Positions 13,938-15,524 of a DNA stretch of 64,000 nucleotides are shown here, piece by piece (the first letter of the stretch is position 1; the number at the start of each line of letters is the position of its first letter). A program made the translations under genes and the position numbers. This stretch comes from Candidatus Berkelbacteria bacterium (lineage in GTDB: Bacteria; Patescibacteriota; UBA1384; XYA2-FULL-43-10; 1-14-0-10-43-13). Under the pieces are notes generated by a model. That model ran no database searches. It saw nothing but the letters and a program-made list of their open reading frames with translations, and was not told the DNA's origin. The stretch is from the NCBI GenBank assembly GCA_037143235.1, contig JBAWZC010000001.1:1132-65131 (forward strand). Direction: 5' to 3'.

Positions 13938-15524
13938 GAAAGGAGGTGATCCATCCCCACCTTCCGATAGGGATACCTTGTTACGACTTAGTCCTGATTA
14001 TCGATCCCACCGTGGTTCCCTGTTGGGACCTTCGGGCGTTACCGACTTTCCTGACTTGACGGGCAGTGTGTACAAGACCCGAGAACGTATTCACCGTGGT
14101 ATGGCTGACCCACGATTACTAGCGATTCCGACTTCATGAGGGCGAGTTTCAGCCCTCAATCCGAACTGGGGGTAGGTTTGATGAGGTTAGCTTCACCTTA
14201 CGGTTTTGCAACTCATTGTTACTACCCATTGTAACACGGGTGTCGCCCAGGACATAAGGGCCACGCTGATCTGACGTCATCCCCACCTTCCTCCGATTTA
14301 ACACCGGCAGTCTCGTATGAGAATTTAACATACAATAGGGGTTGCGCTCGTTTGCCGACTTAACGGAACACTTCACAGCACGAGCTGACGACGACCGTGC
14401 AGCACCTGTTCAGCACCTTCGAAAGAGTCCTAGTTTCCTAGGATTAGCAGCTGTATGTCAAGCCCTGGTAAGGTTCTTCGCTTGTTGACGAATTAAACCC
14501 CATGTTCCACCGCTTGTGCGGGTCCCCGTCAATTCCTTTGAGTTTTAGCCTTGCGGCCGTACTACCCAGGCGGCACACTTAACGCGTTAGCTTCGAAACG
14601 CAGAGGGTCGATTCTCCACATTCCTAGTGTGCATCGTTTACGGCGTGGACTACCGGGGTATCTAATCCCGTTCGCTACCCACGCTTTCGTTCCTCAGTGT
14701 CAGGTAATGCCCAGCAGACTGTCTTCACCATTGGCGTTCCTCATAATATCTACGCATTTCACTGCTACACTATGAGTTCCATCTGCCCCTGCATACCTCT
14801 AGTCAGAAAGTTTTGGATACGTTTTCCCAGTTGGGCCGGGATATTTCATATCCAACTTTTCAAACCACCTACGAACGCTTTACGCCCAGTAAATCCGGAT
14901 AACGTTTGCACCCTACGTATTACCGCGGCTGCTGGCACGTAGTTAGCCGGTGCTTATTCATCTGGTACCTTCATATTTATTCCCAGATAAAAGAAGTTTA
15001 CGATCCGAAAACCTTCATCCTTCACGCAGTGTTGCTGCATCAGACTTGCGTCCATTGTGCAAAATTCCCAACTGCTGCCTCCCGTAGGAGTATGGGCCGT
15101 GTCTCAGTCCCATCGAGGCTGGTCATCCTCTCAGACCAGCTACCCGTCATAGCCTTGGTGAGCCTTTACCTCACCAACAAGCTGATAGGAACAAGGCCTC
15201 TCCCCAAGCGCCTTACGGCTTTGACGTACCTCGCTACCACTCGGCACTAGTTATAAAGTTTGTAAAGTACTAAGTTTGTAAAGTAATTTTCGAATTTACT
15301 TTATGAACTTTATGAACTTTCTACTTTATGAACTAAAGTGCTGAACGCTAGTGAGGCACGTATTATGCAGGATTACCCCACCTTTCGGTGGGCTATCCTT
15401 CACTCGGGGGCAAGTTCCTTGTTATTACTCTCTCGTCTGCCGCTGCCCTTGCGGGCCGCTCGACTTACATGTGTTAGGCACGCTGCCAACGTTAATCCTG
15501 AGCCAGGATCAAACTCTCCGTGTA
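13938..15524 (-). rRNA. rrs: 16S ribosomal RNA (complete), containing a roughly 95-nt AT-rich insertion at 15249-15343
   Basis: Reverse complement starts with AGAGTTTGATCCTGGCTCAG (complement 15498-15517), contains GTGCCAGCAGCCGCGGTAATAC and GGATTAGATACCC, and ends ...GGATCACCTCCTTT (complement of 13939-13952). Length about 1.59 kb. No 23S or tRNA is adjacent, and a terminator follows. Confidence 0.9.

Follow-up and report, generated by a model that had tools for sequence, protein, structure and literature searches.

The DNA analysed here is a stretch of 64,000 nt from Candidatus Berkelbacteria (positions 1,132 to 65,131 of contig JBAWZC010000001.1, assembly GCA_037143235.1; hereafter the window), and it contains a single, unlinked 16S rRNA gene in which the tip of helix 9 is replaced by a 136-nt hairpin. 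The insert is real, well delimited and modular, and it is one of a family of inserts that is patchily distributed among Berkelbacteria. We favour, with a probability of roughly 0.55, reading it as an element of the intervening sequence (IVS) type that carries no open reading frame (ORF). Two sets of observations lead to this reading: the insert is an AT-rich hairpin at a helix tip whose ends pair over about two helical turns and which has no ORF, and members of the family are present or absent at the strain level, with sequences akin to them at further rRNA sites. The insert adds a new case to a known kind of insertion and does not establish a new one.

Position and structure of the helix 9 insert

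Relatives were collected by scanning GTDB species genomes with a lineage-typical 16S motif (61 loci) and metagenome contigs with the helix 8 flank (71 loci); individual loci are cited below by L numbers. The closest 16S genes are those of metagenome-assembled genomes of Candidatus Berkelbacteria (88-93% identity), and an aminopeptidase neighbouring the window 16S gene is also Candidatus Berkelbacteria by NCBI annotation. An earlier note on this DNA, made from the letters alone, had rightly suspected a Candidate Phyla Radiation (CPR) type of genome.

Helix 9 in more than 40 Berkelbacteria-type 16S genes is a hairpin of only 10 nt, with a 3-bp stem and a GNRA-type tetraloop (e.g. AUC-GAAA-GAU). 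In the window this hairpin grows to 138 nt: where relatives have about 8 nt, the closing pair and the GNRA loop, the window reads CGUGCC...GGUACG (Table 1), and the A-U pair 15361/15224 closes the inserted hairpin. The insert is located exactly at the helix tip and extends the helix in register. Alignment to the Rfam small-subunit (SSU) rRNA model gives the same placement, with 120 nt against 6 in the consensus at model positions ~186-192, which puts it in the loop of helix 9, the first hairpin to follow helix 8.

The earlier note had described, in a gene of about 1.59 kb, an AT-rich block of ~95 nt lying ~180-275 nt from the 5' end in V2, foreign to typical 16S genes, built from short direct repeats and able to fold as a long imperfect hairpin. 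Most of this description holds. The block (15249-15343) occupies 16S positions 182-276 of a 1586-nt gene; it contains TTTATGAAC three times and AGTTTGTAAAGTA twice; the SSU alignment marks it as non-canonical; and the helix spanning 15222-15362 folds as a single hairpin (-48.7 kcal/mol, z = -7.8). What changes is the extent. The GC-rich foot of the hairpin is absent from relatives and hence belongs to the insertion, beyond the AT-rich block, so the element measures 136 nt, has a conserved GC-rich base and lies, with its gene, on the minus strand.

The insert has 35% GC, against 50% for the 16S gene. Its repeats are not an effect of composition: when the helix was dinucleotide-shuffled 5000 times, five of the shuffles attained a 9-mer in three copies and none a direct repeat of at least 14 nt. 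On the plus strand, Tandem Repeats Finder reports two period-9 arrays, TAAAGTTTG in 3.7 copies at 15254-15284 and ACTTTATGA in 4.3 copies at 15298-15334.

No target-site duplications were found at the insert junctions; the flanking bases pair together and covary instead. Rfam models of group I and group II introns gave no match to the insert at gathering or E-value thresholds, and no ORF was found within it. A search of the insert against Rfam at a permissive E-value returned only sub-threshold plant miRNA precursors and small RNA families, i.e. generic hairpins. We also considered that the hairpin might have evolved on the antisense strand, and rejected this when a comparison of folding gave no signal (four elements fold slightly better antisense, three sense).

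An independent ENA contig (k141_293778, L001) has the same insert as the window, base for base, which makes an assembly artefact very unlikely. These two sequences are otherwise 99.85% identical, and their 12 differences all lie within ~100 nt of V3 (14969-15070, 16S 455-556); possible sources are micro-heterogeneity between strains, a patch of recombination, or a chimeric piece of one assembly.

Disruption of standard 16S primers or alignments, also foreseen in the earlier note, applies to the alignments and to amplicon length, V1-V2 and V1-V3 amplicons being 128 nt longer with the insert. The primer sites themselves are intact: 27F, 338R, 341F, 515F, 806R and 926R match the window 16S gene with 0 mismatches, and 1391R and 1492R with one each, at sites far from the insert.

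A family with a shared base and differing tips

Helix 9 inserts of 136-146 nt are present in four further contigs, from other projects and from three other lineages (L068, L069 = L083, and L093). Their first and last 23 nt match the two base strands of the window insert, with the joint consensus YGUGCYUCACUAGCGUUCAGCAC ... GURCYGAGYGGYAGCGARGYACR. The central ~90 nt, by contrast, are unrelated among carriers, each having short repeats of its own: GACAACAGA in L068, GGAUUACGAAU in L069 = L083, and AURGCGAAU in L093. The inserts of the other three carriers likewise fold as rods (z = -7.3 to -8.9).

In the alignment of the base modules, 95% of the cells of the 21-bp base helix are paired, compared with 23-49% when the partner strand is slid. 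Compensatory double changes occur at four pairs (6-66, 7-65, 12-60 and 20-52), and AxC and GxG mismatches are conserved across carriers. This covariation is supportive of a maintained base helix, not conclusive.

Distribution among relatives

In a neighbour-joining 16S tree built after removal of all insertions, the carriers do not cluster. The nearest relatives of every carrier are non-carriers, and two such pairings are well supported: L093 (carrier) with L111 (non-carrier) at 100% bootstrap, and L083 (carrier) with L007 (non-carrier) at 90%. All the nearest relatives have the 10-nt helix 9, in agreement with the doubt voiced earlier that the block is a lineage-conserved rRNA helix. A search for closer relatives by way of the syntenic M29 aminopeptidase found no intermediate forms; the next homologue is only 78% identical, and the helix 9 region, available at three of the six loci, is short in all three.

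The 16S genes of L093 and L111 are at least 99% identical, with 15 substitutions in ~1450 nt, and their flanking DNA is 99.6% identical. Thirteen of the 15 substitutions fall in V2, at or just after the helix 9 insert, or directly beside a second insert of L093. Across the family the junctions are imprecise, 6-10 nt having been replaced. Exchange of the V2 segment by homologous recombination fits better than clean transposition, given the imprecise junctions, the lack of target duplications, the covarying flanking pair, and the clustering of substitutions beside the inserts.

Hairpins have also entered other helices of these 16S genes. (i) The second insert of L093 (16S gene on the minus strand, 4585-6263) is a 91-nt hairpin in the V6 region, at about 16S position 1000, in what we take to be helix 37; it is absent from L111. 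(ii) The lineage represented by L060 = L066 = L115 = L130 bears a 64-nt AT-rich hairpin in helix 10, not helix 9. Three of these four loci (L060, L066 and L130) match a group I intron and group II D1-D4 in a 1.6-kb insertion near the 16S 3' end; the L115 16S sequence stops before that position.

Related hairpins elsewhere in rRNA transcription units

The tip of the window insert has a homologue outside any mature rRNA. In L074, whose own helix 9 is short, there is a hairpin (z = -6.6) past the 16S processing helix and before the terminator, and the window tip is 87% identical to one of its arms over 39 nt and matches the other exactly over 15 nt. The two differ by a compensatory change, AAAG/CUUU to AAGG/CCUU. 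The trailer strand of the window processing helix has a motif, CTTATCACTAGTTAGTTG..AAAAGAA, that is kept in L074, L083 and L112; the repeat motif of the L083 tip is also found in L112, at the trailer position of the L074 hairpin, and the helix 9 tip of L071 resembles an intergenic hairpin in L060.

A further type of element is tripartite, consisting of a small GC hairpin, a long AT-rich hairpin built from repeats, and another small GC hairpin. Such elements occur in helix 9 of L123 and L129, as well as in V1 and directly after the 16S 3' end of other loci (Table 1). The left hairpin follows the motif (Y)GTGC-NTNG-CAC(R), and those of L120 and L088 are identical over 16 nt (GCCGTGCGTAGCACGG). 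This motif has seven matches in ~1 Mb of fetched DNA: six are sense-oriented and fall within a 16S transcription unit, and the remaining one (L106) is antisense, 189 nt upstream of its 16S gene.

Hairpins of the class of the window insert thus occur in the 16S 3' trailers of L074, L083, L058 and L088. From these trailer and helix locations, the class lives at the helix tips of pre-16S rRNA, including parts that never reach the ribosome, and its presence in trailers argues against a role in the finished ribosome. In the 64 kb of the window no second copy of the element or of its base module was found, nor did the base module match viral contigs. The small dispersed repeat suggested in the earlier note is upheld at the level of the family, with tip homologues in the L074 trailer and in the intergenic DNA of relatives, and not within the window.

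Fate and origin of the insert

According to the IVS-type reading, the insert would be transcribed within pre-16S rRNA and would fold into a ~60-bp rod off the solvent-exposed V2 region. The conserved base helix, about two helical turns long, would provide an RNase III-type cleavage site, and the rod would be removed without religation, leaving a two-piece 16S rRNA (~165 nt and ~1285 nt) joined by the surrounding helices. Excision at the base helix is, on our analysis, the most probable fate, at odds slightly better than even. The tip would evolve fast, by replication slippage on both arms or by swapping. Slippage with compensatory change would yield the tip structure observed, with period-9 arrays on both arms, while the match to the L074 trailer hairpin suggests that whole tips may be exchanged. 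The element as a whole would spread or disappear when related rDNAs recombine homologously across the V2 segment. Of the features typical of an IVS, the following are found here: a helix loop replaced by an extended stem-loop, paired ends of at least ~20 bp, AT-richness, the lack of an intron core, and sporadic presence.

Several points weigh against this account. Bootstraps below 50 leave the backbone of the tree weakly resolved, and a single ancient gain followed by many losses could also produce the distribution. The base-helix covariation comes from only four distinct carriers, so its statistics are thin. No RNase III was found in the 64-kb window by a six-frame motif scan or by a Pfam scan of 57 of the 63 ORFs. 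Excision is itself purely inferred. Finally, pairing is kept along the whole tip, and the base covariation would fit a retained, functional expansion segment equally well.

Such retention is the chief alternative, and we consider it possible: the hairpin would be an expansion segment, a ~60-bp rod on the 30S body (V2, helix 9) that possibly lets a protein dock or mediates contact with a host or partner. The strong fold kept in all carriers, the compensatory changes and fixed mismatches of the base helix, the compensatory change between the window tip and its L074 homologue, and the sense orientation of all copies would be expected of it. Presence or absence between 16S genes that are at least 99% identical is unlike a functional part of the ribosome, however, and neither conservation within a lineage nor any relationship among the tips of different carriers is observed, while homologous elements are located in trailers, which are cut away before the rRNA is mature. 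Long, near-perfect double-stranded RNA is, moreover, an expected substrate of RNase III. Helix 9 is a surface helix in a region variable among CPR rRNAs (PMC9297842), which would suit retention, but in the account of Brown et al. (2015) cited in the same paper, the CPR insertions examined were absent from transcripts. The evidence leans toward an intervening sequence over an expansion segment.

A DNA-level origin, in which the element is a non-autonomous transposon (a miniature inverted-repeat transposable element, MITE, or an IS200/IS605-derived palindrome) that enters rDNA hairpin loops and whose base strands are terminal recognition hairpins, seems to us quite unlikely. It would explain why the ends are conserved and the interior variable, why related tripartite elements occupy different sites (V1 in L120; helix 9 in L123 and L129; the 3' trailer in L083, L058 and L088), and why tip homologues appear in intergenic DNA; the missing target-site duplications are a trait of IS200/IS605 elements too. 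Yet the window contains no second base module or whole element, no transposase domain was found in the window ORFs by the Pfam scan (57 of 63), the junctions are imprecise replacements of 6-10 nt and not clean insertions, and the predominance of left-hairpin matches in 16S units, in sense, fits rRNA-specific elements better than a dispersed transposon. That assembly produced the block, by collapsing or expanding a repeat or by joining sequences chimerically, is scarcely credible: the region is rich in repeats, and the clustered V3 differences between the window and L001 show that such 16S assemblies can be mosaics, but the identical insert in L001, the same base module in contigs from other projects (L068, L069, L083 and L093) and the in-register extension of the helix exactly at its tip all tell against it. 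An ordinary long V2 helix, specific to the lineage and vertically inherited, has in its favour that helix 9 varies in length among bacteria and that the Rfam SSU consensus has a 9-bp helix 9 stem; it is contradicted by the 10-nt helix 9 of Berkelbacteria-type genes, including every nearest relative, and by carriers that are not monophyletic wherever the tree is resolved, and its probability is negligible. A group I or II intron was rejected too, since the 136-nt insert matches no model and has no ORF, while the 16S gene of the relative L060 does give such matches.

More speculatively, and with considerable doubt, the family might consist of self-propagating hairpins of the rRNA transcript, with GC-rich landing platforms at helices 6, 9, 10 and 37 and in the 16S trailer, AT-rich arms that are swapped or grown by slippage, and a movement distinct from homing, intron mobility and classical transposition; or else the rod might be retained as a 17-nm RNA 'tentacle' on an otherwise minimal CPR ribosome.

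The 16S transcription unit and its neighbourhood

The 16S gene stands alone, as the earlier note had stated: it is the only match of the Rfam rRNA models in the window, with no 23S and no 5S rRNA gene in the 64 kb, and the three tRNA genes of the window lie kilobases away (Table 1), only that for tRNA-Ala(TGC) being on the strand of the 16S gene. The note's terminator about 150 nt downstream, followed by a coding region, is also confirmed, as a bidirectional hairpin ~155 nt 3' of the gene, beyond which an ORF (13167-13493) on the opposite strand converges on the 16S gene. Leader and trailer of the gene are complementary (-73.8 kcal/mol, computed for leader and trailer as a whole), and their long helix is predicted to act as an RNase III-type processing stem. 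With its own processing helix and its own terminator, the unit is laid out as an independent one.

Table 1. Coordinates of the 16S unit, the helix 9 insert and related features (window positions unless a locus is named)
Feature	Position	Strand	Description or evidence
Solo 16S rRNA gene, full length	13939-15524	minus	Rfam RF00177, 1436 bits, model 1-1533; 1586 nt
Inserted element (hairpin, 136 nt)	15225-15360	minus	Comparison with relatives, Rfam alignment, fold, second assembly
Base module, 5' strand, GC-rich (CGUGCCUCACUAGCGUUCAGCAC)	15338-15360	minus	Common to helix 9 inserts of L068, L069/L083 and L093; covaries with 3' strand
Base module, 3' strand (GUGCCGAGUGGUAGCGAGGUACG)	15225-15247	minus	21-bp interrupted helix, covariation
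AT-rich hypervariable tip (90 nt)	15248-15337	minus	Degenerate 9-nt tandem units, both arms
Leader strand of the helix around 16S	15678-15710	minus	Complementary to trailer
Trailer strand of the helix around 16S	13794-13822	minus	Complementary to leader
Bidirectional intrinsic terminator hairpin, end of 16S unit	13759-13787	both	13 pairs, T runs on either side
Partial motif tract (AAAGTTTATAAAGTCATAAAGTTCATAAAG, minus-strand sense; 30 nt)	24316-24345	minus	Similar 8-9-nt units
tRNA-Ala(TGC)	7168-7243	minus	
tRNA-Ala(CGC)	7512-7587	plus	
tRNA-Ile(GAT)	11583-11659	plus	
Tripartite element directly after 16S 3' end	L083 2555-2722		
Tripartite element directly after 16S 3' end	L058 3050-2868	minus	
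Tripartite element directly after 16S 3' end	L088 4262-4425		
Tripartite element in V1 (helix 6)	L120 1448-1606		

The 16S gene is without a 23S gene, within several kilobases, in 15 related loci as well, so the unlinked 16S gene is a trait of the clade and not peculiar to this contig. The tRNA-Ile(GAT) gene, normally a spacer tRNA gene of rRNA operons, lies 0.6-5 kb downstream of 16S on the same strand in nine of 11 relatives. In the window the usual spacer tRNA genes are 2-7 kb past the 16S gene, facing different ways and separated by protein genes. This scatter looks like the remnant of an rRNA operon split by insertions and inversions.

The housekeeping genes of the window are interspersed with three small, free-standing genes of the GIY-YIG domain (92-108 aa), at 13167-13493 (plus), 21370-21648 (minus) and 28464-28742 (minus). 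The first is the convergent ORF just mentioned, ~450 nt past the 16S 3' end, and its product is 35-42% identical to those of GIY-YIG ORFs within the 16S V1 insertions of L081, L088, L092 and L099/L133. The three may be escaped, free-standing genes of homing-type endonucleases tied to rDNA.

One sequence elsewhere in the window recalls the insert tip. A 17-mer of the AT-rich block, CTTTATGAACTTTATGA, has an exact match at 24316-24332; the earlier note had placed the motif at 24317-24343, and while the match is genuine, it belongs to a 30-nt partial tract and not to a second copy of the element. The tract, in the spacer that separates pgk from an ORF for a 67-aa membrane protein, matches the tip better than any other non-self sequence in ~800 kb of Berkelbacteria-type DNA; the remaining matches in the window are chance-level 9-13-mers. 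To judge from its units, the tract is akin to the 9-nt unit of the tip, not a copy of the element. A regulatory or antisense link through tip-like motifs was considered and rejected, the small proteins encoded downstream of the window tract (67 aa) and of its counterpart at L083 13936-13995 (64 aa) being unrelated; for the same reason we assign the tract no function. The small ORF after the tract is followed directly downstream by a gene at 23161-24003 (minus) whose 280-aa product has a BRO-N (phage anti-repressor-like) domain, and this region may represent a small patch of mobile or phage origin amid glycolysis genes. Two intergenic regions, 39062-39180 and 41136-41512, are very AT-rich and dense in short direct repeats and imperfect hairpins (e.g. 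runs of AAATTACTAA and ATAATAAATA), and their composition resembles that of the insert tip.

Implications and comparison with known systems

CPR 16S genes, known for their introns, also bear small modular hairpins of the IVS type that turn over at the strain level. Such helix 9 inserts break structure-based 16S alignments, and with primer sites intact they make near-identical organisms look different in surveys based on length or alignment. Were the rod excised, the Berkelbacteria ribosome would run on a two-piece 16S rRNA; retention would make the rod an expansion segment unusually long for bacteria. Either way, the family offers a compact system for studying the gain and loss of rRNA helix extensions. 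What goes beyond the descriptions we found is the conserved base with swappable, repeat-built tips, the sister elements in trailers, and presence or absence between genomes that are at least 99% identical.

Eukaryotic rRNA expansion segments, which according to Hancock and Dover reportedly evolve by compensatory slippage, are similar in that hairpins at the tips of surface helices keep their pairing through short repeats on both arms; they are retained and fixed in their lineages, however, whereas the Berkelbacteria element is patchy and probably removed. Among mobile elements, the Correia elements of Neisseria are hairpin-forming MITEs that are transcribed and cut by RNase III, and IS200/IS605 elements insert without target duplication. 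Hairpin MITEs and IS200/IS605-derived palindromes share with our element complementary conserved ends, a variable interior and long RNA hairpins, but they are multi-copy and dispersed, while here we see one copy in 64 kb, confined to the rRNA unit, and no transposase among the window ORFs scanned.

Most characterised CPR insertions are group I or II introns with LAGLIDADG or GIY-YIG genes, and the window insert has none of these. Insertions of at least 100 bp are given for 48% of CPR 16S genes (Brown et al. 2015; Tsurumaki et al. 2024, PMC11270868). Tsurumaki et al. suggest that residual short insertions (<200 bp), neither introns nor ORF-bearing, may be IVSs of the RNase III type (PMC11270868). 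The portions of the CPR insertion literature available to us contain no description of a helix 9 family with a conserved base and a variable tip. The likely model cited for short CPR insertions is the 23S IVS, cut by RNase III and not religated (PMC11270868, PMC4990558). The 23S IVSs of helices 25 and 45 in Salmonella, Yersinia, Campylobacter, Leptospira and Coxiella resemble our insert in that a terminal loop is replaced by an extended stem-loop and in their sporadic distribution, which for them suggests horizontal transfer. They differ in the rRNA and helix affected, some carry an ORF (S23p), and their cleavage by RNase III is experimental, where ours is inferred.

The nearest counterparts described so far are IVSs found in the 16S rRNA of Helicobacter and Campylobacter (among others H. 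fennelliae, H. canis, C. helveticus and C. sputorum). These differ from the Berkelbacteria element in length (about 150-355 nt, against 136 nt), in host, which here belongs to the CPR and has a single 16S gene, unlinked, and in that our distal arm is built from 9-nt tandem units and its excision is predicted only. The IVS of H. fennelliae lies at 16S position 175, is 64.5% A+T, has no ORF, ends in a 24-bp terminal stem put forward as an RNase III site, and has a segment in common with a 23S IVS (PMC3335488). The Helicobacter and Campylobacter IVSs and the window insert are thus alike in their V2 site, AT-richness, lack of an ORF and end stem of ~21-24 bp, as well as in having strains with and without the element and related sequence at another rRNA site (PMC3335488).

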